Position numbers and translations under genes: made by a program. From Takakia lepidozioides (Eukaryota > Plantae > Bryophyta), in the NCBI GenBank assembly GCA_030704615.1, contig CM060731.1, positions 50,716,001 to 50,780,000 of the forward strand: a stretch of 64,000 nt of DNA, written 5' to 3'. Under the pieces are notes generated by a model. The model ran no database searches. It was not told where the DNA came from and saw nothing but the letters and a program-made list of their open reading frames with translations. How positions within the stretch are numbered: position 1 is the first letter of the stretch; every line of letters starts with the position of its first letter. Positions 25,811 to 54,235 of this stretch are shown piece by piece.

Positions 25811-25837
25811 ACGATGATGTGCGAAGGGGTGAAGCGA

Positions 25838-27689: not shown

Positions 27690-27951
27690 GTAAAGTTATA
27701 GTAGAAACTTTCACTTTGAGTTATTGAAATTGAAATATATATTACCAATTATATTTTCAGAATATACAGCTGTCAATGTTTGACTTTGACAGAATAAAGG
27801 ACTCTGTAGTGAAACTTTTGATAGTTGTAGTGAATTGTTTTATTAATATCAGCACATTTCACTACGTGGTGCTAGAAATAGTGAAAAGTGGCAAATAGTG
27901 AAATTCATAGTGAAATACTGACGGTGCTGAAAACCATAGTATGTTGTAGTG
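27690..27951. mobile_element. Orphan CACTA-like right terminus nested inside the Pack-CACTA
   Basis: Ends TGTTGTAGTG at 27951, preceded by TAGTGAAA/TTTCACT repeats. No partner end found. Confidence 0.5.
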
Positions 27952-29162: not shown

Positions 29163-30559
29163 TTGACGATGAGGGGACCGCGACGTGGCCCACGTGTCAT
29201 GGAGGGCACCATGGAGCAGCACCTGGCGGAAAATGTGGGGAGGGGGGTTAGTCCCCGAATTGGAGAAGGGGATCAATCAAGGCGGGGGGAGCGACAGCAC
29301 GGGGATTGCGTTGTCCATGGTCGAAGGCCCGGGGGACCGCGCCTGGGCTCGGGGGATCAGGCCTCTAACCATTGGAGGGATCGACGGCGGAGGGGATTGC
29401 GACGTGGCGGCATGTCACTGTGAACGGCAGTGGTTGTAAGTAAGATTGATGCACAGGGGATCAACGGTTCGAGGAGAACCACGTGGCGCACGATTGGGAG
29501 TGGGGATCACTCCCGCCCTGGACGGGGGATCAACCCAGTTACGGGGGATCGCGCCTCCGATGGGATGAGGGGATCGACGGCGGGGGGGGGGGAGCGCCAC
29601 GTGGCGTGGGCGTGCCATGGGGCCTTCATCCGACCATTGTCCATCCATTGTGCGGGAGGATGGCGGGGGGATGAGAAGCGGAGGACCCAGAACATCCATT
29701 GTTTTGAGGTTGGATGGATGAGCAGGGGATCGACGGTTCGGGGGAGCAGCACGTGGCGGGCGATTAGGGGTGGGGGATCACTGCCGGTCCGGAGTGGGGG
29801 TCGGGGGGAGCGGCGACGTGTCGGGGGATCGCGCCGTGGATGGGAAGTGCCTTACGCGGGAGGATGGCGGGGGATGAGGGGCGGATGTCACACAATGTTG
29901 TTTGTGAGGTTGGATGGATGCGCAGGGGATCGACGGTCTAGGGGAGCTGCACGTGGCGGGCGATTAGGGTTGGGGGATCACTCCCGGTCCGGAAGGGGGG
30001 ATCAAGACGCGTCGGGGGAGCAGTGACGTCTCGGGGAGCGCGTCGTGGATGGGAGGAGGGGATCGACGACAGTGGGAGTGCCACGTGGCGATGGGCGCGT
30101 CATGGGGCCTCCATCCAGCCGTCATCCATTTAATTGAGGTTGGATGGATGGGGAGGGGATCGAGGGTTCGGGGTAGCGCCACATGGCTGGAGATGGGGGT
30201 GGGGGATCACTCCGGCACTGGAAGGGGGATCAACCCAGTGAGGGGATCCACAGCGGGGGCCGCCACGTGGCTGGAGATCGGGCGGTGCTGTGGGGCGCCG
30301 CGTGGCCAATGGTGGGGCGGGGATCAGGGGTCCCGGGCGGGGGGGAGGGGGGGGGTCAGGGGGTCGCGGGAGCAGTGGGCGGGCGGGCGGGGGCGGGGCA
30401 ACGGGTGGAGGGGTCGGAGGGGGGTGGGGATGATTGACATGGGACGTCCAGCTCGCCGACGAGGCTGCCGGAGCGGGGGTTCCCCGGCTGTACCTCGCGG
30501 GCCGTACCCGTCAGCTCACACGCTTGCAATAAAATCAAGCCACATCCATATTGGGACCG
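28860..30559. mobile_element. Long GC-rich terminal inverted repeat of a Mutator-like element (right junction)
   Basis: Reverse complement of 45151-45965. Ends ...CCATATTGGGACCG at 30559, followed by GACTAACGA (9-bp TSD). Dense GGGGATC and CACGTGG motifs; poly-G run at 29125-29161. Confidence 0.85.
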
Positions 30560-30884
30560 GACTAACGATGGGGCAACTCTTGCACCCGGCCTCTTGATCT
30601 ATCGAGTTTGAGTGTAGTAGGGACAGTGGTGGAGGACTTAATGAGGCTACGGTCACTATCATATCTTGTGGCTACCTGGACTTAGAGGGACCTAAGCACC
30701 AGCTAGGGGGGCGATTGTGGTGGACTAGTGACTGCCATAGTGGGCAGCCTAGCGACTGACTAGTGGCAGCCTAATGGTTGGACTAGTGGCTGGACTAGTG
30801 GTATACTACTGTGTGGTAGGCACATGTATTGTGTGGTTTTGGACAGCAATGTAATTGTGTAGCGATATGTATGCGCACGACAGC
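30560..30884 (+). mobile_element. 3' UTR, PPT and LTR start of the DNMT/PHD gypsy family
   Basis: Aligns with 43055-43292; PPT AGCTAGGGGGGCGAT followed by TGTGG at 30716. Confidence 0.8.
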
Positions 30885-30948
30885 TGTCAAGTTATTTCAC
30901 CACTAGTGTGTAACTAGCTAGGAAATAGCTAGCTTTTATATATTGACA
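30885..30948 (+). repeat. 64-bp module TGTCAA...TTGACA, also forming the 3' end of the copia LTR (52148-52211)
   Basis: The two copies have the same length and differ at only two positions. Confidence 0.9.
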
Positions 30949-32035
30949 TTTCCCTCCGGCACTACACCTCCCACTATCTCCGCAGAAGATGAAGTAACCT
31001 CCCCACTCTCATAGAGTGTAGCTGCCAGCTTGAACACCTCTGCTAGTTTGAACACCTCTGCTAGTCTTACCCCCGGCGTCGCAATCATAGTAGCCGAGAA
31101 TAATGGAGCCTGACACACAGATGTGGCCGCCCCCAACAGCACACTAGCTGCCGTAGCCATGACAGCAGGTAGTGATGCTGCCCGTGTGGCTCTCCCCAAT
31201 GGCATAGTAACCTCTGCCTCGGTAATAGTCGGGCGAGAACTAGGTGTCATGGATGGCGTCGACACTGTCTCCTCCAATGTGAATGACTGATGAAGCCTAG
31301 CCTGACGGCTTGCCTCCCCACGCTGTGAATCCAACTCCACCTCCGCACCTCGTGGCTCAAGAACTCGTGCTGCTCCTCGAGTCACGGCTGCAGCAGACTC
31401 CACCTGCACTAGTGGTAGTGTTGCTCCGCACATGAATCCCATGCCTCCCATATCTCCTCCCTCAGGAACAGGAGGTGGACCCTCCGGCCTTGGAGCCGGT
31501 ACCACCTGAGCTGTAGCCATGGCAGCGAGCATCTGCTCTAGTTGCTGAAGCCGGTTGGCCATGCCTTGGTCAACACCCTGACCTCCGCGTCCTTGGCCAT
31601 GTTGAGCTTGCCCTTGCCCTGCACCTCATGCCTGGCCACCTCGTCCTCTCTACGCTGCTCCACCTCGCCCCCGGCCACCATTGTTCCTTTGGAACTGGCC
31701 TAGGCGCAACTTAGGATGCAAACCATAATACTGGGCCTCTCCATGTCCGTGCTTGCCACAATGCCCACACTGCAATTGTGCAGGCTATGCATGTGCCGGC
31801 CCTTTGCCTCCCTCTGGGCAATCTTTCTTGATATGGGGTCCTCCACATATCCAACACACCACCTCCGCCCATTGTTGGCCTGCAAATGAAGGGAGAGACC
31901 CATACATCTGAGGTCCTCTCTGTCCTTCCCTGGGCTTCACATGAGCCCCCTTGTTGCCTTGAGCACGTTGAGGTAGTGGTTGGCTATGAGCACCACTACC
32001 CTGTGGTGTCTCCTCATCAAATCCCACCATGACCC
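30949..32035 (-). pseudogene. Inverted gag fragment of the DNMT/PHD gypsy family
   Basis: CWICGGPHIKKDC zinc knuckle; MANRLQQLEQMLAAMATAQVVP... matches 36600-37670. Confidence 0.9.
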
Positions 32036-32146
32036 CCTTAGCAGAGGAGTAGAAAACAAATCACCTTTGTGATGGTCGGTAGCGACAATCCCTATCTGGG
32101 ACATTCCACTCAATCTCTACGCATATCTTCAACAATGAAATGTAAG

Positions 32147-32557
32147 TTAGATAAAACTTACTTGCGCCTTCTTAGGTTTTGAAATTGGATCCCCTTCTGC
32201 AGCTTTCCTCTTCCCTCTCACATCTGCTGGAATTTCTGTCTGCTCTAGGGTTTCTGGACCTTCTCCCGGTTCGGCGTTCCGCGTGCTTCCACCTCCTTCT
32301 GTGTTACTGCAAATCATCTCTGCCTCCACAGGCTGGCGCACTCTTATCGCCGACTGTGTCACAGCCGCTGCCTCAGTCTCCGTCTGCTCTTCTGTATCAG
32401 TCTCCGCGTTCACCTGCTGCCTTGGCCCTGTGTTCTCCAACAAACGACGCCTCATCATTTGCTCTCTTGCTCTGCGTCTCTCTCTAAGGGAAGTAAAATA
32501 AAGAGACTTTCTTCTCTTTCGTATTGTAGAAGGAACCCTCTCCAGCTTGACTACCAC
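32147..32557 (-). CDS. Probable first exon of an uncharacterised gene divergent from the transposase N-terminus
   Basis: Acidic/basic low-complexity ORF with NLS-like RGKRK/KPKK, ending at CAA|GTAAGT (donor consensus) near 32161. Confidence 0.35.
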   Translation of the reverse strand: MVVKLERVPSTIRKRRKSLYFTSLRERRRAREQMMRRRLLENTGPRQQVNAETDTEEQTETEAAAVTQSAIRVRQPVEAEMICSNTEGGGSTRNAEPGEGPETLEQTEIPADVRGKRKAAEGDPISKPKKAQVSFI

Positions 32558-33313
32558 TCTCTCTCTAAGCGCGAAAAGTAGAAAAACGCAGTGACTCCCG
32601 ATTTCTTGCGGGATTGCTTGCGTTCTTGCGTGTCTCTAGAAGCATCGGATTCCCTCTCGCGTGACCGTTACACATAGTCGTTCCCTTATTAGTGCACATG
32701 CCAGCAATTGGTGTATAGCTATTCGTATTCAGTTATGGATGTCTGACGTGTGTCGCCCAAAATAAACGGCGTGTTCTTTATTAGAACGGTTTCAATATTT
32801 AAAAATAACAGCGAATCCCAGAAATCTTGGCGCACAGTCTTACACAAATAAATGTAAATGAACGAGAGTTTGATGACAAATCTTGGAATATCATACACGG
32901 TCATCCTTGTTAGCCAGACCCCACATTCGTTTCACATTTGAAACTTTCTAGGTGCGCATGATCATTGGTAGTAGTATAAAGATACATTTACTTAATCTGC
33001 AATCCCATCCTCAGATCCTGTGGCATGCTTCCAGGAAGTCGGCTTTGTTATTGGGTTATTGATGAGGTTCTGGTTAACGGTTTAACAGCTGCCGACACTG
33101 CTCCTAGGGCTACTCTGACCACTGGGCCCACAAGAAAAGTAATTAAAATGGACGGTTGCATATCTGGAAAGAATAACATAATATGCACAGTCGTTGTCTG
33201 AGCTTCCTCCGCCATATTCTCTGCTCATTCTTCAACTGTGTTCTGGAGACATCAGTAAACCGATTTACACTAGATCTGCGATAGCAAGGTACAAACGTAC
33301 GCGAGGAAGGAAG

Positions 33314-33934
33314 ATGGCTTCCTCTGAAGCGGAGTTCTTCTCTGACGACAAACCAGTGTCGTTCTCCCAGGAAGTCCTTGACAATGGATTTGCAATTGTT
33401 CTGGAACATGTCTTGGCTACCCGTTTTCAGCTGCAGAATGGCTCCATTTTTTTGGAGAAAGAGGTGTACGATCTTAAAGGGAAGTTGTTGAAATACTCTT
33501 TCCAAAACCGTGATGAGACGGCTCATATCAGCCAGTGGAGAGTGCGTCCTGGTCGATACAGAGTACTTGGAGAGCCTCGGCGAAAGTCCCTTGGGTCATA
33601 TGTGACGCCCGGGACTGCTGCTTCGGTCGTTGAAGACAAGAGGGAGGTGGTGGTGAAAAAAGAACAGACGTCCTCCACTCCAATCGTTGAGATTTCGGAT
33701 TCTTCCGATGATGACATAAGTGAAATTCCAAATGCAGTCCTTCCTACTGTGGTTGTAGAAGCTGATGAAGAAGAAATTTGTAGTGTCATTCCAAAATTGC
33801 GGGCGATGGGAGGAATGGCTGGATTCAAAAGTGAGTTGCGGGGAATTGATTGGGAATCTTTGAAGCAGGTGCCTGTGAAGTTCTTGCCGGAAACTTTTGA
33901 TGGCGATATCCTATTCGAGCTGCCTCCTCCTCCG
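33314..33934 (+). pseudogene. N-terminal part of the GCM-like MULE transposase family, truncated
   Basis: ORF ends in FLPETFDGDILFELPPP, matching the DSDVLFELPPP that begins the 780-2800 copy. Confidence 0.6.
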
Positions 33935-35606
33935 CGGTGGATCTTCAGGAGATACAATCATTTCTGGCGAGTCAGCCCCCTTTCCAATTTTCTGCTTCCT
34001 GTTTATGCCGAAGCAATGGCACTTCACGCGGCCGAGTCCCTATCCCCTGACTTTTTAGTGGCCAGCCATAGGTGTATCCAGCGTGGATCCGGTGTTCTAA
34101 AATACATAGACTTAGATACAGAAGAAGCGGGGATACATTGTACTGACTCTGAGTCAGACTGAACTGTATTCTTTTAATATTCATTTTCATACTATCTGGA
34201 AAACGTTGAATCCCCTTCCTCCACCGTAGTTGTTCCTTTAGAACAAATAATAATCACAGAATCAACTTTCATTTAAATTGCAATATGTATGAATCCATCT
34301 CACAAACCTCCCTGACTCTTCTCATATCCATTGTGCATTCATCTACAGTGTATTCATGCGTGCTCCATTCATGAATTTTTTCCTTTGTTCAACATCCATT
34401 GTACATTCATCCTCTGTACTCTTTAATCCACCCCACAAACTTCCCACACTTATTTCATATACGTTGTGCATTCGTCAAAAGTTTTGGTCATGCATCTTCC
34501 TGTCATGAATTTTTGTCATTGCTCAACATCCATTATACATTCATCCATTTTACTCTTATCCATCCCTCATTCATCCATCTACATTCATTTTTCACACTCA
34601 TCCATCTGTTTATCATCCAACTGTACATTCATCCATCCTTTATTCAATGCCGTTTATTATGTCGTCCAGCTTGTTTCCGCAGTAAAGGGTGCCAATCCGC
34701 GGGAATACACTCCACTTCTTTCTGGGCGCGTGGTGACGCGGCCTTCACGTGTGATGACGTGGAGTGAGCCCCGTGACGTGGCATTTGCGCAAGGTGACGT
34801 GGCGTGAGCGCAGTTGCGCTCACGCGCTCACGTGACCAGGCTCACGCCGAGGCGTCCCTGGTCTCAAAGCTTTCGAGTTGAGAGACTGTCAGACCCTACC
34901 TTTATTTTCTTTAGTGTTCAGTGAGCGGGAGATAGGGGAGTATTGCTTTGTCTCTACCTGGCAGAAAGAGGAGGAGGGTTGGTTAGAGCGAGCTACTGTA
35001 GCTTGGGACAAGGTTAGTGGCAGGTTTCTGGACATAGATATACCTCCTACACCTACCACCATCATGCAGAGCGAGGCACTTTGAGAGAAGTCTGGCAATT
35101 GATAGCATAGATCAGGATTAGATCTTGCTTGGTCGGGCTTCTATTCTCCCCCCCCCCTCTCTTTACTATTTTCATTACTTTATACTTGTAGTTGCCAAAG
35201 CCTCTCTTGGTGGAGGCCAGTCAGTCCGGGGTTTTGGGCTGGGATATTCTGCAGGATCAGCATTGCAGATGGATTTTGGTGTGGGGGTGTTGATGTTTTG
35301 ATTTCTTGTGTTTGGATCCCCCCCAACACCTGCATGCTTGACTGTGCGCCATGTTGGTTTTGTGTGGGCACTTGCTTTCATAGGGATTAGGCCGGATTTG
35401 ATCACCGGTCAATCCTAGAGTATGTTGTCGGTGGTGAGGGTGGAGTGATGACCAGCAAGACCACCAGTGTTTCTTCTATGGTAAGACTGGGTTGATGACC
35501 AACCAACCATAGGAGTTATTGTGGTGGATGCAGGTGCAAGTGCCCTGAACCACTGGGATATGACCCTTAAACTGCAACAGGTGCCCACCCGTGTCACTAT
35601 TAGAAT

Positions 35607-35619
35607 TAGTACTAGAGCC
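35607..35619 (+). promoter_or_regulatory. Putative degenerate primer-binding site (tRNA-iMet type)
   Basis: TAGTACTAGAGCC versus TGGTATCAGAGCC: 10/13 identity, all three differences transitions; lies just before gag. Confidence 0.45.
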
Positions 35620-35631
35620 TTATAGTGTCAC

Positions 35632-37740
35632 GTGGGGGAGGTGCACATTGTGAGTGTCATCACGGAGTTACCCAAGGGTTTTGAGGGGAGTACGGCTACA
35701 GGCAGTAACAGTGAGAATGGGTTCACAAGACGAGGTATTCGGTTCAGACCACCTTCACCTCCACCCTTAACTAGTGCAGAGTCAGACACAGACTCGGAGG
35801 CTTCATCAGCAGGTGTGCAGTTTCATTCGCCATTGTTGTGGGACGACATGGAGGAGATGTATGGAGCTACCAAGGGGCATTGTAGGTACTCTGGAGCTGT
35901 GGGCACAATTGAGCTAGATGACTTTATCCAGGAGTTCGACAGCTGATGTGATTTGCAGCAGATGCGCAATCCACAGTTGTTCACCCCATTCATGGCGTGG
36001 AAGGGACTGTTCCAGCATTTGGAAGGCCCGCCTATGGATGATTACCACGAGTTCAGGCGAGGACATGAAGCAGAGATTGAGCAGTGGAGGATGTATTGGT
36101 CACCTGACTACGTCTCCATTATTCGAGGCACGACGCGACCAGTAGCTGCATCAGCACCAATATCTCCCACTGCCAGCACTAGTAGTGGAACAAGTAGTGC
36201 CGGTACTTCTGTAGGTGGTACCAGTTCAAAAGGTGCTACTACTCCTCCTGCCATGACTACAACACATGTGCCTAGATTCAACCCGGTGGTGGAGTTCTTC
36301 CAGGAGTTGCGGAGGAACTACCAAGGTGTACAGACAGAGAAGCTGCGAAGTTTGCAAGACTTCCAGCGCAAACCCAGTGAGAGCCTGCGAGAGGCGTACA
36401 CTCGTATGAGGTGCTTGATAAGTGTGACCCAAGGGGTTACTGAAGCTCAGGCAATCCAGTTCTGGTATGGAATTTTGGACAAGGAGCTCAGGAGAAGGGT
36501 GCGGGATACAACCCTGTTACAAGCAGCCCAACCCACATTTAGCAGATGTGTTTCTGCTGGCTGAGCGGATTGAGCTCAACATGGTGGAGGAGCGAGTTGT
36601 TACCATTGGATTTGGCAAAGACATGCCTGCAAGAGGCGCAGCTGCCTGCCCACAGGCACAAGGGACTGCCCAACAGTGTGGTCAGGGGGGCAAGGTTTCC
36701 CAACCCAAATTTCACAGAGCTTACAGGGGACCTCAGGTGCAGAGGCCAGTAGCATCTTTTGCAAGCCAACAGCAACCAGGGGTGATATGTTGGACATGTG
36801 GAGGACCCCATGTCAAGAGAGATTGCCCAGAGAGTGGCAAAATGCCGACACCAGCACAGCCTGCACAGTTGCAGTGTGGGCATTGTGGCAAGTATGGGCA
36901 TGGAGATGCCCAGTGTTATGGCTTGCATCCTGAATTGCGCCTAGGCCAGTTCCAAGGGAACAATGGTGGCCGGGGGCGAGGTGGACCAGCCCAGAGAGGA
37001 CGAGGTGGCCGGGCACGAGGTGCAGGCCAAGGGCAAGCTCAACATGGCCAAGTACGCGGAGGTCAGGGTGTTGACCAAGGCATGGCCAACCGGCTTCAGC
37101 AGCTAGAGTAGAGGCTCGCTGCCATGGCTACAGCTCAGGTGGTACCGGTTCCCAGGCGGGATGGTCCACCTCCTGCTCCTGAGGGAGGAGATATGGGAGG
37201 CATGGGATTCATGTGCGGAGCAGCACTACCACTAGAGCAGGTGGAGTTTGCTGCAGCCGTGACTCGAGGAGCAGTACGAGTTCCTGAGCCACGAGGTGCA
37301 GAGGTGGAATTGGATCCACAGCGTGGGGAGCAAGCCGTCAGGCGAGGCTTCCTCAGTCATTTACATTGGCGGAGACAGTGTCGACGCCATCCATGGCACC
37401 TAGTTCTCGCCCGACTGTTACCGAGGCGGAGGTTACTATGCCATTGGGGAGAGCTACACGTGCATCACTGACACCTGCTACTTAGGCTAGTGCAGCCGGT
37501 GTGTTATTGGGGGCAGCCACCTCTGTGTGTTAAGCCCCACTGTTCTCGGCAACCATGATTACGACGCTGGGGGTAAGACCAGCTGCAGTGTTCAGACTAG
37601 CAGCAACAGTCTGTGAGAGTGGGGAGATCACTTCATCTTCTGCAGAGTTACTGGAAGGTATAGTGGCAGAGGGATCCTCGGATTTGAGGGTCAAGACTGC
37701 CACGGCTGCGCCATGGCAAGCTGCAGCTGCCAGCTAGGCC
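35632..37740 (+). pseudogene. gag: gag with two CCHC zinc knuckles and a GR-rich region
   Basis: ELDDFIQEFD, LRSLQDFQRKPSESLREAYTRM, CWTCGGPHVKRDC, CGHCGKYGHGDAQC; stops and frameshifts present. Confidence 0.85.
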
Positions 37741-37807
37741 AGCCTTTGAGCGCGCCATGGTGACACCTGGAGTTGTCTTGTTAGACAATTAGGATGACAT
37801 TTTCTCT

Positions 37808-38230
37808 TTGAGTGGACCGGCAGGCAAGAAGTACCGGCCACTGCGGGTCTTGTTGGACTCGGGAGCTCAGCCACTGATGTTGGGCAGAGCTGCTATTGCA
37901 GGTTTGGGCCTCATGGAGGCGGATATGGAGCCTTGTCCTTTCCAGATACAGACATCTCCGGAAGGATCAGAGCAGGCTCGGGGCATGACACGGCGTGAGT
38001 TGGCCATTAGACTGCAGCCGGATCATCCTATAGATGGCTCAGTGACGCGAGCCAAGGCCATTGTGATAGACGCGGTCTCTTACGATGTTCTCGTTGGTGG
38101 GGCAGTGTTATATCCCATGGGTTTCACCCTGGACTTTTGGGAGGAGTTAGCATCCTACAGGCCTGGATGGCAGTCAGGGGATGGTCGTCGTGCACAGCTC
38201 CCTGTGACATTCATTGGGGGTATTTGCGGC
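37808..38230 (+). pseudogene. Retropepsin aspartic protease domain
   Basis: VLLDSGAQ catalytic motif and downstream YDVLVG. Confidence 0.85.
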
Positions 38231-38559
38231 TGCCCAGCGGGGCAAGATGCCAGCACTAGCCGCTTTTACAGCTGCAGTTAGTTGGCCTAGAGAGTTGCTG
38301 GAAGGCAATGCCCATGCAGAGGATGTGCCACCTTCAGCAGAGCAGGATGACATGCATGGTATGGCGGAATTGCCTGCCATGGTTGCTCACACTCCATTGT
38401 GGGGGTACGAACAAGGATTTGCAGCAGGCTGCTGATGGACGGGTGCAACAAGCCTGGGTAGAGGCCTTTGTACCGTCAGGAAAAGAGGAGAGTGCGGTGA
38501 TTGCACCAGGACCACCTCAGTTGTCGCCATTGGATACCACACCTCTTGTGTGGCAGTGC

Positions 38560-39510
38560 CCGGATGAAGGCATATGCCTTCTGGACTTGTTTGGCGGGAT
38601 CAGCACTGATTGGCTGCAGTGCAGCAGGCAGGTGTACGAGTTCGACGTTACCTGTATGTGGAGAGGGATGAGACTGCACGACACGTCTCACTACGCCATG
38701 TTGCTCAGTTGGTACAGCAGTACCCTGATTTGTTGTCAGTGTCTGCAGTTCGTGGATACCAACAAGCCTTGCCAGCAGACATTTCGTTGCTGGGGGCGCA
38801 GGATTTGGAGCAGGTTGGCTCCATTGATCTGGTAGTGGCAGGTTGGCCCTGCCAAGGGCATTCATCAGCCGGGCATGGCAATGGATTGCGAGACTCGAGG
38901 ACCGGTCTGTTTTGGGAGATGGTGCGGGTTTTGCGCCACTTGCAGCTTCATCAAGCTGTATCTCCAGCATACATCTTGGAGAATGTGCCACTGATGGGTG
39001 ATTCTCGGGCCAGGGTGATGGCCAGTGTGCATCAAGTCCGGTCGTGGCTTGGGTTAGCAGTGTTGCTGGATGCAGCTGCAGTGGGGTCACGGGCTCATCG
39101 TCCACGGCTATGGTGGACTAACTTGATGCCACCCGCACTGCTCAAGCGTGCATTTGATGGGGTGCAGCGGCTAGCACACCTCACAGTGGATAGCATTTTG
39201 GACACAGGGAGGCAGTCTCAACGTGTGAGACACGATGACCGTTCGCCTTTGGCAGTGGTCAACAGGGTGGGTCAACCACAAGCAGCATTACCTACACTGC
39301 TCAGCTTCCCAGGATCCCATGCTTTTCGGGATGGTGGACCTGGCCTCTTGTGGGATAGCCAGTTGCAACAATTAGTGGAGCCCAATGCTGACGAGCGCGA
39401 GTGGGCAATGGGTTTTACCACTAGTACCACGGCGGTGCCATCTCTTTCTGAGGCATCACATTGTCAGGTGTTGGGGCAAGCAATGGATCTCAATTGCTTG
39501 ACCTGGATTA
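38560..39510 (+). pseudogene. C5-cytosine DNA methyltransferase domain (DNMT3-like) inside pol
   Basis: Motif I LLDLFGGIST (frameshift at ~38610), II YLYVERD, III ADI, IV DLVVAGWPCQGHS, V GLRDSRTGLFWE, VI YILENV, VIII AHRPRLWWTN, IX/X ERE.AMGF...LGQAMD. Confidence 0.92.
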
Positions 39511-39947
39511 TCAGCTTGGCTATGGCCGAGCAGCGCAGAGTACGGAGTACACTTCCCTTCATGGTCTCCCTGCCTACCGAGACGGTACAGGCAGCGAGTG
39601 GGGGCAAGCAGGTGAGGACCACGAGGTGCAAGCCGCATCCATGGCACACGTGGGAGGTGCTCGAGGTTCAGAAGGAGTTGGCAGCCAAGGCGGCGGTGAT
39701 GGATCAGGTTGGGGAATTTTCTCGGGTTGAGGAGGTCCTCAAGGATGGGATGATAGGGCAGGGTGAGACATTATCACTGACAGAGGAGGTAGTGGTCACT
39801 GCTCAAGAGGTTGCAGCATAGCAACCACGGGACGCGTCTTCTACCTCTAAGCCTGCTAGACTTAAGGTTGCAGTCACGGAGGACAACTGGGAGCCTGATG
39901 TTGGACCTATAGTCACCGGAGGAGAGAGACGACGTATACGGCAGTTC

Positions 39948-41325
39948 TTGAGGGCTTACAGGAACTGCTTTGCCTTCAGTTTGAAGGACTTAGGAGCACT
40001 GAAGGGTCAAGAGATTTGCATTGAATTGGCTACTGACACGCCAATCTTTCGGAGACCCTATAGATACAGTGACATGGAGAGGTCCTTGATTCAGATGAGA
40101 ACTCGGGACCTTTGGGAGGCTGGTTTGGTGGAGCTATCTGGGGGAGAATATGCTTCAGCCACAATGATGCCAGCCAAGAATGATGTCTATGGCAATTGGA
40201 CAGAGAGACGTATGTGCGGTGATTACCGGCCTGTAAATCGTCAGACCAAGTCCGATAGGTATGCTATGCCAACACCAGAGGAGATCTTTGATGCCATTGG
40301 GCATGCAAAGGTCTTTAGCACTTTGGATTTACGATCCGGATATCACCAGTTGCCGATCAAGGAGGCGGATAAGCAGAAGACGACATTCTGGGGGATCAAT
40401 GAGCACGGGAAGGATTGTCTTTACCAGTGGCGGTTCTTACCATTTGGGCTTAAAAACGCTCCGGCAGAGTTTCAGAGAGTCATGGACAGGATTCTAGCAG
40501 GGGTGGAGTTTGCTCGGTGCTACATAGATGACATCATCATCTTTAGTGCTACGGTGGAGAAGCATGAGAGACACCTTCAGATGATATTTGAGCGTTTGAG
40601 GGCACACGGATTGAAGTTACATCCGGGGAAGTGCAAGTTTTTCCACAACCAGATTGAGTATCTGGGTCACATGATATATCTTGGAGGATTGGGGATACAG
40701 CAGACTAAGGTAGAGTCCATTGCACAGATTCCACGCCCCACGGATGTGAGCCGAGTTCGAGCTTTCATGGGGTTAGCAAACTATTATAGACGGTTTGTTA
40801 AGGGATTTAGTGCCATTACAAAGGCTCTAACCAAGTTGACCAAGGTGGACCAGGAGTGGCAGTGGGAAGATGAGCAAGAACAAGCTTTTCAAGAGCTCAA
40901 GGCGAGGTTGACCTCGGCGCCCATCTTGAGACGACCTATCATGGGGCGTCCTTTTCAGCTGCTTACGGATTGGAGCATGCTGGGGCTTGGAGCGGTGCTC
41001 ACATAGGTGGATGATGAGGGAAGAGAGTTCGTAGTGGCTTATGCTAGCCGTTCGAACAATGCTGCCGAGTCTAAGTATAGTTCATATGAGGGAGAATGCT
41101 TAGCTGTAGTGTGGGCCGCGGCACACTTCAGGTGCTATCTATACGGCAATCTCTTCACCCTTGTCACGGATCACCAACCACTCAAGTGGTTGATGGAGTC
41201 AGACAAGCTTACGGGGAAGCTTGCACGGTGGGCACTCATCCTTCAAGAGTATGACTTTCAGGTTGTGCATCGACCAGGTTTGGTCAATCGCAATGCAGAT
41301 GGGTTGAGTCGCAATCCATGCAGGA
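39948..41325 (+). pseudogene. pol: Reverse transcriptase and RNase H (gypsy type)
   Basis: RMCGDYR.VN, LDLRSGYHQ, LPFGLKNAP, YIDDIII; RNase H TDWS, EGECLAV, TDHQPL, ADGLSR. Premature TAG at 41004-41006. Confidence 0.95.
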
Positions 41326-42947
41326 ACTTCAGGATGACACTGGAGCTCGGTGGCATGGTGAGAGGGATGAGGAGATGGTGCCTGGATGGCATGCATCTGC
41401 ATTTCTGTATATCTTGGCAGCGGAAGGCCAGGTTGGACCTGCAACAGGGATGACTGTAGATCAAGTGTCTGAGGACCCTGAGGCCAGCAATGAGCAAGGT
41501 GGCGCCAAAGATATACATGAGGATTCAGCTGTGTTGGACTATCTCTATACTGGAGACACGGCAACCACTGTGACTGCCAAGGAGAGGGATCGGATCCTAC
41601 AACGAGCCAAGAGGTTCAAGTGGGAGGGGACACACCTGCTCCGAGTGTGGGAAGATGGTCGAGTGAGGATTGTGCCTCATCCAACACAGCGGGCATGGTT
41701 AGTGCGGCATGCCCATGAGGAGTTGGGGCATTTTGGGGTGCGACGCACTCATAGTCTACTGCAGGGGCAATATTGGTGGCGTGGTATGCACACAGAGGTG
41801 CAACAATTTGTGGCTAGGTGCATGGTGTGTGACAGGGTACGTGCTTCATTCAACGCCCCTACTCCACAATTGCACGCTCTTCCGATCATGGGATTGGGCT
41901 ACAGGTGGAGTCTTGACTTCGCAGGGCCGTTGCCACTGACCATGCGCCACAACAAGTACGTGTTGGTGATGGTGGAACACTTCTCCAAGTGGATCGAGTT
42001 GGTTTCCATTGCCTAATAAGGCTAGTGAGGGAGCCGCGTATGCATTCTTGGATTGTGTACTTAGCCGATTCGGTGCTCCAGCTGAGGTACTCACGGACCA
42101 AGGGAGAGAGTTCTTGGGGGAGTTTCAGGCTTTGCGTGACAAGGCCTTGATAGACCACCGCACCACTTCTCGGGATCATCCTGAGGCCGATGGCTTGGCA
42201 AAGAGAGTTGTTCAGACAATAAAGAGGGGTTTGCGCAAGTATGGCTTGCAGAAGGGACACCTAGGAGATTGGGACCTTCAGTTACCCTGGTTAGCCATGG
42301 GCTACAGGTTCAGCAAGCAAGCATCACTTGCCTCCTTCTCACCATACTTTCTTCTCTTTGGCCGAGAGCCGGATTTGCCTACATCCATTCGCAGAGAAGC
42401 TGCCACAGTTCTTAACCTTGACGATCCGGATGTGTGGGCACGTGTATGTGCAGAGTTGTTCAAGAAAGTCATGCCCATGGCTTTCGAGAACCTTGCCATT
42501 GCACAACATCGTGATACGATGAGGTATGCTACCATACGTGGTGGGGGTTATTGTCCTGGGGTTCGGAGATTCAACCCTGGTGACTATGTCTATCTGCAGC
42601 AGACTACTCCTACGACCTTGGATATGACTGCAGGACGTGTTATTTTGAGAGTTCGAGAGGTCTTGCCCTCAGGCGTCTTGATCTTGGAGGGTCGGGATGG
42701 CATAACTTGGAAGGACCATGTGCGTAATTGTGCGCCATGTCACCTTCCGAATGTCGATGGCAGGATTGACCCAAACCTGGCAGTGGTATCTGCAAGTTTG
42801 ATGTGCATGTTGTGTGGGTCTGCTAGAGGGGCAGCCACCATGCTGGTGTGTGATCGATGCTCTAGAGGTTGGCATATGGGATGCTTGACTCCACCTCTTG
42901 AGATGGTTCTGGATGGGGATTGGTTATGTCCACATTGCATTGGATAG
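41318..42947 (+). pseudogene. Integrase (HHCC plus DDE) with C-terminal PHD finger
   Basis: HEELGH...CMVC, SLDFAGP, TDQGREF, GLAKR (catalytic E replaced by K); C4HC3 PHD CMLC...LVCDRCSRGWHMGCLTPPL....GDWLCPHC then stop. Frameshift at ~42010. Confidence 0.93.
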
Positions 42948-43196
42948 TGGGAGTGGATACAACCATGGAAGGCTAACAAGAAACGCAAGGCCAAGCTACT
43001 AGGAAACCTTCAACACACGAGATCCTGGCTCGAGTTCACAGATTGCAAGACGGCGACTAACGATGGGGCTACTCTTGTACCCGGCCTCTTGGTCTATAGA
43101 GTTTGAGTACAATATGGACAGTGATAGAGGACTTAGTACGGCTGTGGCTATTACATCTTGTAGCTATTTGGAGTTAGAGGGACCTATCCACCAGCT

Positions 43197-43292
43197 AGGG
43201 GGGCGATTGTGGCAGACTATTTTATTGTGCATATATGCTTGGTGTGGTTTGGACAGCGATGTAGTTGTGTAGTGATATGTATGCGCACGACA
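43197..43292 (+). repeat. Polypurine tract and truncated 3' LTR
   Basis: AGGGGGGCGAT|TGTGG; LTR sequence shared with 30716-30884 and (inverted) 44290-44362. Confidence 0.7.
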
Positions 43293-44279
43293 TATTGATA
43301 TCATAACTGATTTGGGAGGTAAAATTGAAGAGGTACTGGAGGCTATTACACGGTTTTTTGCTTTTGCGGATTCTTCAATTACTTATCAAGAGGAGATCCA
43401 AGGTGGGATTGCGCAAAGTGGGCTTGATGTTGTATGCGCACATAGCCAGTGCATCGGTTCTATTTCTCAGGATGAGAATTGACGGGGTCTTGACCAACAG
43501 AATATGGCCCAGACGCTTCTCTGAAGAAATGAGAAAGCGCCGTTTATGCATTTTGGAAAAAAAAATGACAATGATGTGGCACTTAGCGACCCTATTATTG
43601 CTTTACCCTAACACTACTCGTCTCCCACTTTTTAATGGTCATTTTATATACACACACATCTCTCTCTCTCTCTCTCTATCTTGGGATTAGGCTAAACTAA
43701 TTACTTACAGCCTATTATTCTATTAAGGAACCCTATGCTTCTAGAAGTCTCGAGAATGAAGGGTACAACGAATGAATTCATTTGTTCCAAATCCCTAAGT
43801 AGGATTATATTGATAGATCTGTGTTTCAAAACAGTGGCGTTAATTCATGTCGGGAGTTCAGATTCCTAAAACTGCTGAGTTCATAGTTCGTGAATCACTG
43901 TACGTCATATTATCTATTTTCAGCTGCAGATTGTTGTGCATTACCTGTCAGTTGCAATGTCACATGCAAGTCTTTCTCCAGTTCTCAAGGTGGTTGTCTC
44001 CATGAGCACCTTGCCCCCTGATTTCCTTTTGACTTACCTTGCTTAGGAATGCATGTTGGAAAGTAATGACATGTAAAGCGTTAAGACCTGCTACTTACCT
44101 CGCGCATCCTCACTAATCTGTGTTCTGTTGAATGGTTGTGATTTTGGGACGGGCGTAGGTAATGGTCCTTCACCTTTCATGGATTTTTTAGCATTGTAGG
44201 TTGAAGGCTTCAGGGTAGTAGTAAGGGAAGGAAGATGAAGGGTATGGAACCAGTAGGCTACATACACAAGGGAAGACAC

Positions 44280-44362
44280 CCTTGTTAGAGCTGTCGTGCG
44301 CGTACATATCGCTACACCACTACATCGCTGTCCAAAACCACAAAACACATGTGCCCGCCACA
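44280..44362 (-). repeat. Inverted LTR fragment of the same gypsy family
   Basis: Reverse complement reads GGTTTTGGACAGCGATGTAGTGGTGTAGCGATATGTACGCGCACGACAGCT, as at 30835-30885 and 43245-43292. Confidence 0.8.
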
Positions 44363-45150
44363 AGTGCCTTGGTTAGCCATGGGCTACAGGTTTAGCAAAC
44401 AAGCATCACTTGCCTCTTTCTCACCATATTTCCTTCTCTTTGGCCGAGAGCCGGATTTGCCTGCAGCCATTCGTAGGGACACTGCTCAAATCCTTAACCT
44501 TGACAATCCGGACGTGTGGGTACGTGCATGTGAACAGCGTGCAGAGTTGTTCAAGAAAGTCATGCCCATGGCTTTTGAGAACCTTGCCATTGCACAGCAC
44601 CGTGATACGTTGAGATATGCCACTATACGCGGTGAAGGATATCGTCATGGGTTCGGAGGTTTAGCCCTGGTGACTATGTTTATTTGCAGCAGACTGCGCC
44701 TACGACCCTGGATGTCACTGTAGGGCGTGTTATTCTGAGGGTTCAAAAGGTGTTGCCCTTAAGAGTCATGATCTTGGAGGGTCAGGATGGCATGACTTGG
44801 AAAGACCATGTGCGTAATTGTGCGCTATGTCACCTTCCCAATGTCGATGGCAGAGTTGACCCAAACTTGGCAGTGGTACCTGCAGGTTTGAGGTGCATGC
44901 TCTGTAGGTCTGCCAAATGGGCAGCCACCATGCTAGTATGTGATCGATGCTCGAGAGGTTGGCACATGGGATGCTTGACACCACCTCTTGAGAAGGTTCC
45001 TGATGGAGATTGGTTGTGTCCACACTGCTTGGGATAGTGGCAATGGACATGACTAGAGGCAGCTAACAAGACATGGGAGGCCAAGCTCATAGGAGTCAAT
45101 ACACGAGATCCCACGCTCAAGTTCACAGGTTGCAAGACGGCGACTAACGA
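44363..45150 (+). pseudogene. Second copy of integrase C-terminus plus PHD finger and start of 3' UTR
   Basis: PWLAMGYRFSKQASLASFSPYFLLFGREP...CMLC...VCDRCSRGWHMGCLTPPLEKVPDGDWLCPHC, stop at 45037. Confidence 0.92.
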
Positions 45151-45965
45151 CGGTCCCAATATGGATGTGGCTTGATTTTATTGCAGCGTGTGAGCTGACG
45201 GGTACGGCCCGCGAGGTACAGCCGGGGAACCCCTGCTCCGGCAGCCTCGTCGGCGAGCTGGATGCCCCATGTCAAATCATCCCCACCCCCCTCCGACCCC
45301 TCCGCCCGTTGCCCCGCCCCCGCCCGCCCGCCCGCCCGCCCGCTACTCCCTGCACCCCCCTGACCCCCCCCCCCCCCCCCGCGCTCACCCGCCTGGGACC
45401 CCTGACCCCCGCCCCACCGCTGGCCACGCGACGCCCCACAGCACCGCCTGATCTCCAGCCACATGGCGGCCCCCCGGTGTGGATCCCCCTTCAAGTGCCA
45501 GAGTGATCCCCCACCCCCATCTCCAGCCACGTGGCGCTACCCCCGAACCGTCGATCCCCTCCCCATTCATCCAACCTCAATTAAATGGATGACGACCGGA
45601 TGAAGGCCCCATGACGCGCCCATCGCCACGTGGCGCTCCCGCCGCCATCGATCCCCTCCTCCCATCCACGGCGCGCTCCCCGAGATGTCGCCGCTCCCCC
45701 CGACGCACCTTGATCCCCCTTCCGAACTGGGAGTGATTCCCCCAACCCTAATCGCCCGCCACGTGCGGCTCCCCCGGACCGTCGATCCCCTGCACATCCA
45801 TCCAACCTCACAAAACAATGGATGTTGTGTGTCATCCGCCCCTCATCCCCCCGCCATCCTCCCGCACAAGGGATGGACGACGGCTGGATGAAGGCAGGAT
45901 GACACTAACAGGCCACGTGCCGCTCCCCCCGCCATCGATCCCCACAGTGGCATTCATCCCCGCAA
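45151..45965. mobile_element. Long TIR of the Mutator-like element (left junction), truncated internally
   Basis: Begins CGGTCCCAATATGGATGTGG immediately after GACTAACGA (45142-45150); inverted copy of ~29560-30559. Confidence 0.88.
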
Positions 45966-47741
45966 ACTGAAGACTCCGGTGAAGACACGGTTTGCTTCCA
46001 AGGTGATCCTCTTCCAAGAGACTTTGGAGTTTAGGCAAGCCATAATCACTTGTTACTCTAGGCAAACCTCATTGGCACTGCAGTCTCGCATACCAAGTCC
46101 ACAAGTGTGGGCCATTGCCCAATCAATTTCTACAGTTCTAGGGCCTGTGGTTCATGAGTGCATTATGAATCAATCTGGGGGATTTTGGTTGTTGTCCGAT
46201 GCTCTTAATGCAGCCATTGCTACAACAATTCACATGCGAGGAAGTAGTGCTGGGGGGGCTGCAACTGTGGATCATTGCATGGGGGATTTCTCAACAGAGT
46301 TGACATTGTTGGAATGGCGGATGGCTTGAGAGGTGGTATATGTCTTGGAACCATTTTTTTTTTTTTTGGAAGGGTTTCAATCGCGCAAAGCTCACAATAT
46401 GCTCGCGCTTATGCTTGACCCACGTTACAAGGGGTTGTCATTGGTATCACAATATGTAGGCAAAGAGCGTGCTTTGCATATTGTGTCCCAATATGATAGT
46501 ATGGTGTTAGAGCCTCTTTTGGTAAAGTGTTTCAAGGTCTTACATCCGGATACTCCGGCCCAATCACAGCCCACTTCCACAATGGACGAGATGTCCTTAT
46601 TTGGTGTGCATGACCACAATGAAGACATGACATTGACAGTGGTGAGAGAACAACTATCACATTTCAGAAGGACGAAGATAAATGAGGGTGAGTGCGTGGC
46701 TCCTTTGAAATGGTGGAAAGAACACGAGTCTCTCTTTCCGTATGTGGGATTTTTGGCACGGCTAATTTTGGGCATAGTTGGATCTCAGATTGAAGCTGAG
46801 AGGGTTTTTAGTATTGCAGGTGTCATAACAAACTTGAGACGGTGCAGGTTAAATATTGAAAACCTTGATATGCTTGTGAGTGTAGTCAAGAATTGACCAA
46901 ATGATGCTAGAGTTGGTTGCTTTAGTACTTCCATGAAAGAGTTTTTGGATAGGGAAGAAGTCCTTTAGATGAGAATGAGGACTTGATTGCAGAGGCAAAC
47001 CTCTTTGAGATAGACTGATTTGTCTTAGAGACAAATTATTGTTCAACATATTACACTATATTCCTTTGATTGGAGTTTGTTTATTTGTCATTTTTATTGA
47101 AAATTTCAGTGACATCCCGTGTACTTAGTTTGTTGTATGCTATATTGACAAAGCATCATCCAAAAAACACAAATTTATGTAGTTTTTTTTAGTTATGCTT
47201 TTGCTGCACCATAAAAGGTAACCATAGAATTACACATGTTTAATTTGTTTTGTATTTTGAATTAAGATCCTTATGTAGTTAGTTTGTTTTAGTTGTTCTT
47301 TGCTACACCGTACGACAACTTATAAAATCTCTGGTTTTCCGTTTTTAATGGAGACCATGCGTATATAACTACCATAAAAGACAATCACAAAAAACATATA
47401 AGTTTATTTACTTCTGTTTTACTAATAAATTCCCTGGTTTTAGTTGAAAATTCTCAGTATGACCAATCAGATCAGTTCATCTAATTTTCCAGAAGAATAA
47501 AAAATTAAAAAAAATTAATATATTTTTAAAAAAGAACCGGAACCTAACCGGGAACCGGTGTTTTTTTTCCAGCAACTAACCGGTAACCGGAACCGCCCCC
47601 ATGTTAAAAAGTCAGAACCTGAACCGGACTGGAACCGCCTTAATAAAAAATAACCGGATCCGGATCCGGAACCGTCTCTTCAAAAATTTGTGGAACCGGA
47701 ACCGAAGGTTCCTTCACAAAGGAAAGAACCGCCCAACACTG
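45966..47741 (+). mobile_element. hAT transposon 3' part: transposase C-terminus, dimerisation domain and right terminus
   Basis: VKTRFAS, LMLDPRYK, PLKWWK....FP....LAR.ILGI..SQIEAERVFSIAG. AACCGG subterminal repeats at 47534-47705; ends GAACCGCCCAACACTG (CAGTGTTGG-type TIR). Confidence 0.9.
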
Positions 47742-51880: not shown

Positions 51881-52211
51881 TGTTAGAAGGATTAATTAGT
51901 AAATCCAATGTAGGTTAGTAAGTCTAGTAAAATGAATAGTTAGTGTAGTAAATGTAATGTAGGTTAGTAAGTCTAGTAAGATGAATAGTTAGTGAAGAGA
52001 AGTTATGTTCACTGGAACCTTTATGTAACTGCTGAGCCCAGGTGTGAAGCATTTCATGTCTGGGTGACTTCTAAGGTTGGGAGGAGAGCTCCTTCAAATA
52101 TATAAAGTCTTATTCTTATATTTGCTGAGTGTATCTGATCATAACTTTGTCAAGTTATTTCACCACTAGTGTGAAACTAGCTAGGAAATAGCTAGCTTTT
52201 ACATATTGACA
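51881..52211 (+). repeat. copia 3' LTR
   Basis: TG...CA after the PPT, with an internal ~40-bp tandem duplication and a TATATAAA box near 52099. The 3' end is inferred. Confidence 0.65.
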
Positions 52212-53499
52212 TTTGGGATTGGCCCAAGTGTCAATCCAGGGGTCAAGGCAGATTTAGGCCCTGGAGTGGTTATCTTCATGGCAAGCACGGGAGGCTCATC
52301 TTTCTCGAGTTGAGCCTCACCGCGCCTAGCTATGGCGTCGTAGTGTGGATTCCCCATGGCGTGGGATGCACTTGGCTTGACTTGTATTTGAGTGATGAGT
52401 TTATATATGCATGAGTTTCTGCTTCACCTTTGTGAGCTCGCATGAGCTCGTGCTTGTATTCTTCTTCTTTATCACTCGAATGAGCTCGTATCTGTTAGTG
52501 CCAGATACGAGTTAGTTGTAACACTTATGGTTTTTGCTTGAGAATGAGAGAAATCAGGTTTGGATGCGAGGAGCATCATCAAGTTCGTGGTTGTTAGGAG
52601 CGGAGGCGATGTGGGTTACGAGGTGGTAGACCTTGGCATTCGATCTTCAGCTTCAGAGATGAAAGCACCATGTTGCAGGTAATTCCAGAGCATCTTGATG
52701 GTTTCAGATTGTGTACATACATGAGCAAGCACGATTGGGAAGAAGATCAGTCAAGAGCAGGTTATAGTGGCTTTGGTGGCAAAGCTGAGAATTGGCCTTG
52801 GGAATGCGAGCTTTCATTGGCAATGGCTGTGGAGTGCTTAGTCTTATTTTAGAGAGCATCAATGAGCAAAGGAGCCAAGATAGGGGGCTGATATTACCTC
52901 TTGTGTGAAGAGGATGCATGTGTGGAGCATGCATTCAGCCCATTGAAGCTTCCATCTTTAAGCTTGGAGGGCAAGCAAGGAAGAAGGAAGGGCTGACTTC
53001 CCTTATGTGAGGGTAATCGCGCAAGACTGTGAGTTCTGAAGGAGAAAAATGCGAGCAGCGTCGCAAGATTGCTGAAGCCAAGCAGGGTGCGTTTGCTGGC
53101 AGACTGCTGCAAAAGCTGCATGCAAAGGAAATCGCCAAGTGATTACCTCGGGAGGTCATCCGTGAGCGACTTAGACAAGGCGAGCTGCTTACTTGGCCAC
53201 AGATTGGAGTGCCTAAGTTTGTTGTCATGCGAGATCGCACCAACAACCTTGAGAGCTTTCTGCACCCGAAGGTTCCTAGTGGTTATCGTTTTGGGAGCTT
53301 GTTCGGGGTGGGATTGCGGCGGCGCTGACAAACATACGCCCTGCCTGGACTCCCGATCAGCCTGCTGATGATTTTTTGTGGGAACAATCCATTACTGGCG
53401 TCCCCCAGCACTTGTTTCACCTTTCTGCGCAGGATATTGTGATTTTTCCTTGCAAAACCTTTGATCAAGAGAAGATCGCATGTGTGGAGCATGCCTTTA

Positions 53500-53700
53500 G
53501 CCTGTTGAAGGCTTGCATGAGGCGCCTGATAGATGTAACCCAAGGGGTTGCGGAAGCTCGGGCAGTCCAATTCTGGTATGGGATATTGGACAAGGAGCTG
53601 AGGAGAATGGTGTGGGATGCAACTCTCCTACAAGCGGCCCAACCGACCTTAGCAAATGTGTTTTTGCTGCCAGAGCGGATAGAGCTCAACATGGTGGAGG
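53500..53700 (+). pseudogene. Short gag fragment of the DNMT/PHD gypsy family
   Basis: MRRLIDVTQGVAEARAVQFWYGILDKELRR...ERIELNMVE matches 36400-36590. Confidence 0.85.
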
Positions 53701-54235
53701 CACAATGGGTGGGTGACTATCGGTACAGTCATTCACTGTTGTTCAGATCATACAGTCTGTCTGATTGCCTTTCAAGGAGTCCTTCCTCTTCCCTTCTTTA
53801 GCAGGAACTACTGAATTACGAGCGTCGTTAACGCCATTCGATTCTCCTCATGAGATTTATGTACCTATGTGTTTAAAGAGAGAGTGAGGGTCGGCATACT
53901 GTCAATCATCGTTGTTCAGACCATACAGTCTGTCTGATTGCCTTTCAAGCAGTCCTTCCTCTTCCCATGCTGGCGACGGTAATCACAGTGGAGTCAATCT
54001 GAATAATCTGCACTTACTATCCGCCCTAAACTATACTGAATGTCGTTGCCGCCAATCACTTGCACATAGATGTCATTACACAACACCGATCCGGCAGGTC
54101 GTTATCTTTTGTGATTGTCGTTAACGCCGTTCGCTATCGCTCTCGCTTTTGTTTTGAATACGGCAGTATCAGCTTTGCTTGTGTAGATTGTGCTGAATTG
54201 TTTCACACATTCATAGTGAGTTTCTTTGAGACAGA

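Follow-up and report, generated by a model that had tools for sequence, protein, structure and literature searches.

Gypsy retrotransposons that encode a cytosine methyltransferase are known from KnitGypsy-Dnmt3 of Klebsormidium nitens, or 'Gypsy-DNMT3' of streptophytes, which in the accessible parts of its report has Gypsy Pol domains, split direct repeats of a DIRS-like kind and a domain of DNMT3 type that is under purifying selection (de Mendoza et al. 2018, PMC5890265). PHD fingers on retrotransposons are described as widespread in the portions of the literature available, and the consulted part of one report lists PHD-bearing Gypsy polyproteins with a proposed insertion bias in Chlamydomonas, Gypsy-7a_cRei and REM1 (PMC9940879). 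In the excerpted accounts, chromoviruses such as MAGGY carry a histone-reader domain at the integrase C-terminus and offer a functional model for tethering, and EpiLTRs unite a chromatin reader and a cytosine methylase in one long terminal repeat (LTR) element (bioRxiv 10.64898/2026.05.21.726589). Here we describe a retrotransposon family that shares these features with each of the four, found in a 64,000-nt stretch of the moss Takakia lepidozioides (contig CM060731.1, positions 50,716,001 to 50,780,000; hereafter the window). Its main copy in the window is a Gypsy element that encodes a DNMT3-type methyltransferase and an integrase ending in a PHD finger. Our preferred reading, held with modest confidence and built on sequence comparison, is that this is a dead Gypsy of the KnitGypsy-Dnmt3 lineage whose PHD would serve as a weak tether to the histone H3 N-terminus (Ala1/Arg2), and whose leaky stop would give abundant Gag-level DNMT and scarce PHD-integrase, the two being separate modules and not one reader-writer enzyme.

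A PHD finger and a methyltransferase in one Gypsy lineage

The main copy runs on the + strand from ~35850 to 43292 in the order gag, protease (PR), DNMT3, reverse transcriptase (RT), RNase H (RH), integrase (INT) and PHD, and so has the RT-RH-INT order of Ty3/gypsy elements. Its features are the following, where ORF stands for open reading frame.

35848..37330, + strand: gag with a zinc-knuckle region, broken (tblastn to the Marchantia homologue P0110, 62% over residues 1-222; stops at 35944 and 37109)
37793..38215, + strand: aspartic protease with an LLDSGA motif (ORF translation; tblastn, 57% to P0110 residues 595-758)
38571..39503, + strand: DNMT3-type C5 methyltransferase (PF00145, E 7.8e-13; motif census)
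39819..39827, + strand: in-frame stop with readthrough-type context, TAG CAA CCA (20/21 subclade loci versus 0/14 outside)
39885..41252, + strand: reverse transcriptase and RNase H with one premature stop at 41004 (PF00078, E 3.6e-33; PF17917, E 1.6e-28)
41681..42359, + strand: integrase H2C2 finger and DDE core (PF17921, E 8e-16; PF00665; alignment to P0152)
42585..42737, + strand: integrase C-terminal beta-barrel (five strands at model residues 206-256)
42804..42947, + strand: PHD finger 1 (C4HC3) and stop (PF00628, ligands, fold)
43200..43292, + strand: B repeat of the split-repeat terminus, ending ...GCACGACA, the end of the main copy (three window copies diverge at this CA)

A preliminary description of the window had reported two C4HC3 PHD fingers directly before stop codons, and both proved genuine. 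PHD 1 (42804-42938, +) is followed by Ile-Gly-stop (stop at 42945-42947) and PHD 2 (44894-45028, +), in a second copy, by Leu-Gly-stop (stop at 45035-45037). The Pfam PF00628 search that had been proposed for them, with a cut-off of 24 bits, matched the full model in both (E 2.8e-10 and 40.5 bits for PHD 1; E 9.8e-11 and 42 bits for PHD 2). All 8 zinc ligands are present in each finger with correct spacing, as is the Trp two positions before Cys7, and the two share 84% identity across 61 aa. PHD 1 lies in the same ORF (41970-42947) and reading frame as the integrase core (rve match). An AlphaFold model had a mean confidence (pLDDT) of 64.7 overall and of 81-93 in the PHD blocks, and the modelled PHD superposed on that of ATXR5 at 1.1 A over 50 columns (range 1.1-1.4 A for ATXR5 and BAZ2A/B). 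Between PHD 1 and PHD 2, dN/dS is ~0.11 (proportion of synonymous differences, pS, 0.38; of nonsynonymous differences, pN, 0.057; 45 codons), and the finger was therefore functional while the copies diverged. Across relatives the median pN of the PHD is 0.20 against a pS of 0.62 (22 comparisons), and that of the DNMT 0.20 against 0.74 (9 comparisons); both domains are under purifying selection.

The methyltransferase of the main copy is, by its motifs, a real enzyme domain of DNMT3 type. It is intronless and unpermuted, with motifs I, IV, VI, VIII, IX and X in normal order; motif I (LDLFGG) has been split off by a frameshift near 38607, and PC (Cys codon at 38850), ENV, RxR and motif X are present. 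When the Marchantia homologue P0110 was compared with the PDB, DNMT3A/B/C were the best matches, with DNMT3A at the top. Homologues occur in Marchantia, Calypogeia, Riccia, Sphagnum and Closterium, and liverworts and mosses supply the nearest named relatives. Of 105 aligned homologues at least 98 retain the catalytic Cys, and ENV is retained by 102 of 123. Integrase-PHD homologues were found in Marchantia, Calypogeia, Sphagnum, Klebsormidium nitens and Tetrabaena. A rough pattern match of 61 DNMT-bearing proteins from more distant relatives (P0278-P0422) returned EC in 20 and PC in 8 at motif IV (29 unparsed), and ENT/ENA in 35 and ENV in 11 at motif VI; on these patterns the DNMT of the distant grade differs at its active site.

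The pairing of the PHD with the element's methyltransferase, as had been proposed, holds for the main copy and is co-inherited across a wide lineage. When searches were anchored on the DNMT, 20 of 50 long matches had an integrase core, and 18 of these 20 also had a PHD; the other two stop at the core. Anchoring on the integrase at the DNA level (loci that include duplicates), 22 of 82 loci hold both protease and RT, with a DNMT between them in all except L058, which has an internal deletion (21/22). A distant sample of 150 proteins, clustered at 50% and with PHD in the query by construction, contained a PHD in 148. Forty-four of them span RNase H to integrase: the DNMT follows RNase H in 34 and precedes RT in 1, 8 are too short upstream and 1 has none (P0406, with 880 residues before RT), which leaves 35 of 36 informative distant proteins with both domains. 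There are also exceptions, in the form of L087 and its near-twin L088, where gag, PR, RT, RH, INT and PHD share one uninterrupted frame of 2,152 codons; neither BLAST nor a profile that gives true cases 1e-114 or better detected a DNMT in them. A variant genetic code for L087, read under table 6, was considered and rejected, as its long frame contains no TAA/TAG and the standard code also leaves it open. Overall, pairing is an old and usual condition, not an obligatory one, and the PHD can occur alone. The co-occurrence survey outlined in the preliminary description thus divides: the pairing recurs in the loci and distant proteins just counted, and the independence that was to count against it exists in one direction, as a PHD-integrase without DNMT (L087). 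The DNMT has occupied two positions in the lineage, before RT and next to integrase. One protein, P0154, carries a PHD, a PCIF1_WW domain (PF12237, E 4.9e-18) and a family-related DNMT with no RT or integrase match, possibly a reader plus two methylases.

Trees were built with FastTree from 101 and 53 rows, dropping rows >85% identical, and their deep nodes are weak. In the integrase tree the window groups with K. nitens P0162 (56% identity over 93% of the query) and L028 (DNMT before RT), with support of 0.988/0.997. A single clade (0.988) unites the elements with DNMT before RT, those of Klebsormidium, mosses, liverworts and the window among them; it arises from a poorly resolved grade with DNMT beside integrase, and the root rests on one distant sequence. 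We infer that P0162 comes from the published KnitGypsy-Dnmt3 element, and on this placement the main copy would belong to the KnitGypsy-Dnmt3 lineage, as a variant with a stop between DNMT and RT. A single 5,009-nt contig from another organism covers DNMT through PHD, and the domain order is therefore not an assembly artefact. In the best-matching sequencing run, possibly the window's own sample, the family reaches very high abundance: 87,105 contigs were placed on it, and depth summed to 0.39-1.16 million over the element versus 58 on a flank contig, figures that are not a copy number. This eukaryotic retrotransposon also turns up on six contigs (L083-L088) from genomes that bear the labels cyanobacterial, Mollicutes, Halorubrum and Halanaerobiaceae, most likely through contamination of the bins by eukaryotic DNA. 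Viral contigs gave only two weak integrase matches, without PHD or DNMT.

The conserved stop and the binding potential of the PHD finger

The TAG at 39819 resembles decay but is a conserved feature. TAG or TAA stands at the same place between DNMT and RT in 20 of the 21 subclade loci that cover the junction and in none of 14 loci outside; the sole exception, L018, has a different upstream sequence. The stop is in frame with Pol in 17 loci, and in 3 the anchor is displaced by indels. CAR-YY follows it in 18/20 loci, and exactly CARYYA in 8/20, although the surrounding linker is dissimilar between the roughly four subfamilies. As a background, 708 decay stops within domains of the same loci were followed by CAR-YY in 6 cases and by CARYYA in 1. 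In L083 the conserved stop is the only one in a 5.1-kb frame from PR to PHD, and many homologous proteins, including some from Marchantia, Calypogeia and Sphagnum, end 82-84 residues beyond the aligned end of the DNMT. According to the consulted parts of two papers, CARYYA is the readthrough signal of tobacco mosaic virus (TMV) type, works in plant cells and gave 32% in a TMV reporter (PMC4132726, PMC2754532). The simplest reading of the stop, and a likely one given its context, is that gag-PR-DNMT is the major product and that RT-RH-INT-PHD is made by readthrough. A possible long stem 3' of the stop (39832-39935) pairs the first post-stop codons with a TGGERR-coding stretch. Its z-scores were 0.09, -3.96, -2.73, -0.22 and -1.99, with some compensatory changes and a weak consensus of -2.4 kcal/mol, and it is only a lead.

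The stop might instead be bypassed by splicing or re-initiation, or mark non-autonomous lineages that rely on a borrowed Pol; DNMT and PHD would be separated in these cases too. In 10 of 20 loci the context is immediately followed by an ATG, and the gene models P0113, P0115 and P0121 continue the DNMT into RT, which may be splicing or model artefacts. We nevertheless regard this explanation as very unlikely, since the frame is kept across the stop in undisrupted loci, loci that lack a following ATG (window, L006 and L083) conserve the 3' hexamer, and RT, INT and PHD downstream are still under purifying selection.

The question of what the PHD can bind was approached by mapping H3-pocket positions from an alignment with KDM5B onto the residue numbers of PMC4225485. 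The window subclade was grouped by sequence pattern, and the 81 distinct PHDs comprise 31 from the subclade and 50 from other relatives. The nearest single-PHD structures were KDM5B/KDM5A PHD1, ATXR5, BHC80 and BAZ2A/B, which are readers of unmodified H3. The Trp of the cage for trimethylated Lys4 (K4me3), two positions before the zinc His, was found in 0/81 distinct PHDs and 0/137 distant ones, and is Gly in both window copies. The Asp that binds R2 (KDM5B D328) is present in 77/81 distinct and 130/137 distant PHDs and in 31/31 of the subclade. The A1 pocket (KDM5B L325, P347, G349 and W351) is likewise retained in the subclade as Leu/Ile in 30/31, Pro in 28/31, Gly in 24/31 and Trp in 31/31, with Leu instead of the pocket Pro in PHD copy 1. 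The acidic contacts present a different picture. Both window copies have Ala at the D308 and E321 positions, as do 25/31 (D308) and 23/31 (E321) of the subclade; an acidic K4-contacting residue before Cys1 occurs in 3/31 of the subclade versus 35/50 other relatives, and the acidic wall (E321/D322) in 0/31 versus 30/50, and versus 93/137 distant PHDs. Binding by KDM5B, at 6.4 uM, is weakened to 41.7 uM by D308A and to 75.8 uM by E321A (PMC4225485). On these residues the subclade PHD is predicted to bind H3 weakly, anchored by A1 and R2, with little readout of K4.

These results bear on the proposal in the preliminary description that the element may be targeted to H3K4-unmethylated (H3K4me0) chromatin and encode both a reader and a writer, with the ADD domain of animal DNMT3 as a comparison. 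In its full form, the PHD would read H3K4me0 specifically, direct the integrase there and partner the DNMT as ADD does DNMT3A. The missing K4me3 cage, the nearest structures being K4me0 readers and the strong co-inheritance of PHD and DNMT are in its favor, as is the distant algal-type grade, in which the PHD is acidic (the wall in 93/137) and the DNMT lies directly before integrase in one ORF, so that a DNMT-INT-PHD fusion is possible. The subclade, however, lacks the acidic K4/T3 contacts, the conserved stop and ~1,100 codons lie between its DNMT and PHD, and PHD-integrases exist without DNMT (L087/L088, P0406). We consider this explanation quite unlikely for the window element. H3K4me0 targeting may be plausible for the distant grade and is doubtful here because Ala occupies both of the acidic K4/T3-reading positions; the proposed targeting is not borne out by these residues or by the absent acidic wall. 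The analogy with DNMT3 ADD is likewise not supported, as the conserved stop splits the DNMT from RT-RH-INT-PHD and the DNMT sits at two places in the lineage. What survives of the earlier interpretation is a PHD outside the K4me3 class on the integrase and a DNMT3-type methylase in one element; the coupled reader-writer unit finds no support.

Several points weigh against the preferred reading of a weak H3 tether with a separately produced DNMT. The subclade PHD is net basic (mean +2.4, versus -3.6 in the others), which also fits DNA binding or loss of histone binding. DNA-binding PHDs are known. The finger may now bind DNA or a host protein instead, or serve integrase assembly, and no longer read histone tails: both acidic patches are lost, BAZ2A binding falls 17-fold when its double acidic patch is neutralised, and purifying selection on the PHD persists. 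A switch of this kind is in our view unlikely, because the A1 pocket and the R2 Asp (31/31) have been kept, as a binder of the H3 N-terminus needs. The ATG-bearing loci end in CCC rather than YYA after the stop, and re-initiation is possible there; the stop-bearing loci are also non-independent, representing about four subfamilies with duplicates included. Outside the subclade, DNMT and INT-PHD occur in one ORF (P0152; DNMT directly before integrase in 34/44 distant proteins), and the separation is therefore not lineage-wide. Finally, no methylation was obtained in yeast with the KnitGypsy DNMT in isolation, a result that its authors, in the accessible text, call inconclusive (PMC5890265).

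If the tether and leaky stop are as we propose, most ribosomes would stop after gag-PR-DNMT and a minority would read through TAG-CAR-YY into Pol, after which the protease would release DNMT and INT-PHD. Several PHDs in each integration complex could then bind nucleosomal H3 tails by avidity, with H3K4me3 promoters only mildly disfavoured, and the DNMT, packaged or nuclear at high copy, may methylate the element's own cDNA or its new insertion. A broader and tentative proposal, which we think possible but fairly unlikely, concerns the bryophyte-associated clade as a whole. Placing DNMT3 upstream of a leaky stop would load particles at Gag stoichiometry and let cDNA mark itself before or at insertion, and the charge-reversed PHD on the scarce integrase would dock on nucleosomes irrespective of K4. 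On this view an ancestral reader-writer fusion would have been uncoupled in the move to land, and three changes would record it: the DNMT passed from beside the integrase to the Gag side, a stop was gained and the PHD lost its acidic patch.

Decay, element ends and neighbouring fragments

The main copy is a dead element, because it has frameshifts (near 36540, 37330, 38400, 38607, 41325 and 42005), several premature stops and, in the integrase core broken by the frameshift near 42005, Lys as the third DDE catalytic residue. Its gag matched PF03732 at E 0.004, which is below the cut-off, and its protease is supported by the relatives P0124 and P0145, which match aspartyl-protease Pfams. We take the integrase C-terminal barrel to be SH3-like, as in other integrase C-terminal domains. 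No conserved aromatic cage of Tudor type was seen in it by alignment column counts. A Tudor reader, raised by top Foldseek matches to the Tudor-PHD pairs of PHF1, MTF2 and UHRF1, was rejected given a root-mean-square deviation of ~15 A and the lack of that cage. No Chromo match was found in the ORFs of the window or in 48 long relatives scanned. An H-x3-C-x2-C-H motif at the end of the barrel (42717-42743; residues 250-258 of ORF 41970-42947) is conserved among 35 rows as H in 29, C in 29, C in 32 and H in 34, and could be an extra metal site beside the PHD, or just core packing.

The terminal CA of the B repeat at 43292 is the same end as in L005, L008 and L016, and 58 contigs of run X1 run on from the B-repeat end into the start of the A repeat. 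In the main copy the B repeat is the sole survivor of the split repeats, and same-family reads continue into A. Split direct repeats of the form A1..B1-A2-B2, with TG..CA termini of DDE type, are complete in the relatives L026, L036, L040, L058 and L073, an arrangement that matches the one reported for KnitGypsy-Dnmt3 (PMC5890265). Target-site duplications (TSDs) of 4 bp are clear in L026 (CATA), L058 (ACCT) and L073 (ATGT), have one mismatch in L040 and are absent in L036. An NCGN TSD, as in the moss non-chromovirus Phygy, was absent from the three clear cases and after the 3' ends readable by eye, though CpG decay could hide some.

The second PHD belongs to a fragment, copy 2, whose two pieces are as follows (UTR, untranslated region).

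44367..45150, + strand: copy 2, a 3' fragment with integrase C-terminus, PHD 2 (44894-45028) and 3' UTR
30560..30951, + strand: displaced piece that continues a copy through its 3' UTR and B repeat into the start of the A repeat

Copy 2 is 784 bp long, matches the main copy at 668 of 777 aligned bases (86%) and has a frameshift near 44648. It has no DNMT, RT or catalytic core, and is therefore not a second case of the PHD/DNMT pairing. The 9-bp duplication GACTAACGA is common to the 30560..30951 piece and the end of copy 2, and is single in the main copy at 43056-43064. GC-rich inverted arms at 29566-30568 and 45142-45946 (~0.8-1 kb, 74-87% identical, with internal repeats) have ends that abut GACTAACGA. 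The transposon that cut copy 2 has these long inverted arms and is flanked by the 9-bp duplication, and copy 2 continues at 30560; the arrangement suggests that the two halves of that transposon's target now stand in permuted order. The insertion is presumably Mutator/Foldback-like. A reading of 30560-45150 as one element inserted in the middle of a CCGG palindrome, with Phygy-like CpG targeting, was rejected, as the junctions are the 9-bp duplication flanking another transposon's arms and the TSDs of relatives are not NCGN.

Other pieces in the window include an inverted gag/linker piece of the same family (30951-31919, -; 86% to 36725-37674) and further same-family fragments in 52148-53711 (+), with an A-repeat start at 52148 and a gag piece at 53512-53700. 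A hAT transposase C-terminal dimerisation domain (46330-46896, +; PF05699, E 6e-12) lies 400 bp past the right inverted arm. Dispersed repeats at 4637-5375 and 22100-28211, with ~300-nt spacing and 60-90% identity, may by eye be degenerate coding repeats of pentatricopeptide (PPR) type.

Comparison with described systems

The preliminary description had singled out the combination of PHD and DNMT as the notable part. The pairing is real, but the family is partly known, and in the consulted sources Gypsy-DNMT3, PHDs on retrotransposons and, in a 2026 preprint, reader-plus-methylase LTR elements have already been described. We found no paper on PHD and DNMT in one Gypsy element or on the stop after the DNMT, in a search that lay outside figures, subscription journals, bioRxiv supplements and repeat-library reports, and no demonstration of PHD-directed integration for any retrotransposon in the literature consulted in part. 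None of the earlier literature found describes the conserved stop of leaky type that follows the DNMT, the acidic patch that the PHD has lost in the same subclade or the DNMT-less relative. A 2019 opinion paper held that land plants such as tracheophytes lack transposons that encode methylases (PMC6338049). The role of transposon-borne DNA methyltransferases is called unclear in the available text of both PMC5890265 and the 2026 preprint, and the homologues in Marchantia, Calypogeia, Riccia and Sphagnum make it testable in model bryophytes. The conserved stop predicts the amount of DNMT and the polyprotein in which it is made, and acidic versus basic PHDs, the two DNMT positions and the DNMT-less relative are built-in controls for cooperation between reader and writer.

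KnitGypsy-Dnmt3 is the closest system. Its accessible text and supplements make no mention of a PHD, though Fig. 4c may draw one, and describe no land-plant members; its DNMT shares an ORF with RT and RNase H, whereas in the window family the frame is the same with a conserved stop between them (20/21 subclade loci) (PMC5890265). EpiLTRs differ, in the preprint text available, in having a chromodomain rather than a PHD and a DNMT4-sister enzyme plus an adenine methylase, and their authors call them distinct from Gypsy-DNMT3. Chromoviruses, for some of which targeting has been shown according to the accounts consulted, have another terminal structure and a chromodomain, which was not found here. 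In type I (TMV-type) readthrough, UAG-CARYYA, the portions available of PMC4132726 and PMC2754532 describe UAG or UAA before CAR-YY, with a polymerase downstream in the same frame, as in the window family; here the stop follows protease and DNMT and does not lie between gag and protease, and readthrough is predicted from sequence. Gypsy-7a_cRei has no DNMT listed in the part of the report at hand, and its legend gives the order RH, PHD, INT, so that its PHD may not be C-terminal (PMC9940879). According to the same text, Gypsy-7a is found between genes 2.6 times more often than expected, whether through targeting or through selection, and by analogy this bias may be the nearest functional hint to the role of the PHD in the window family.

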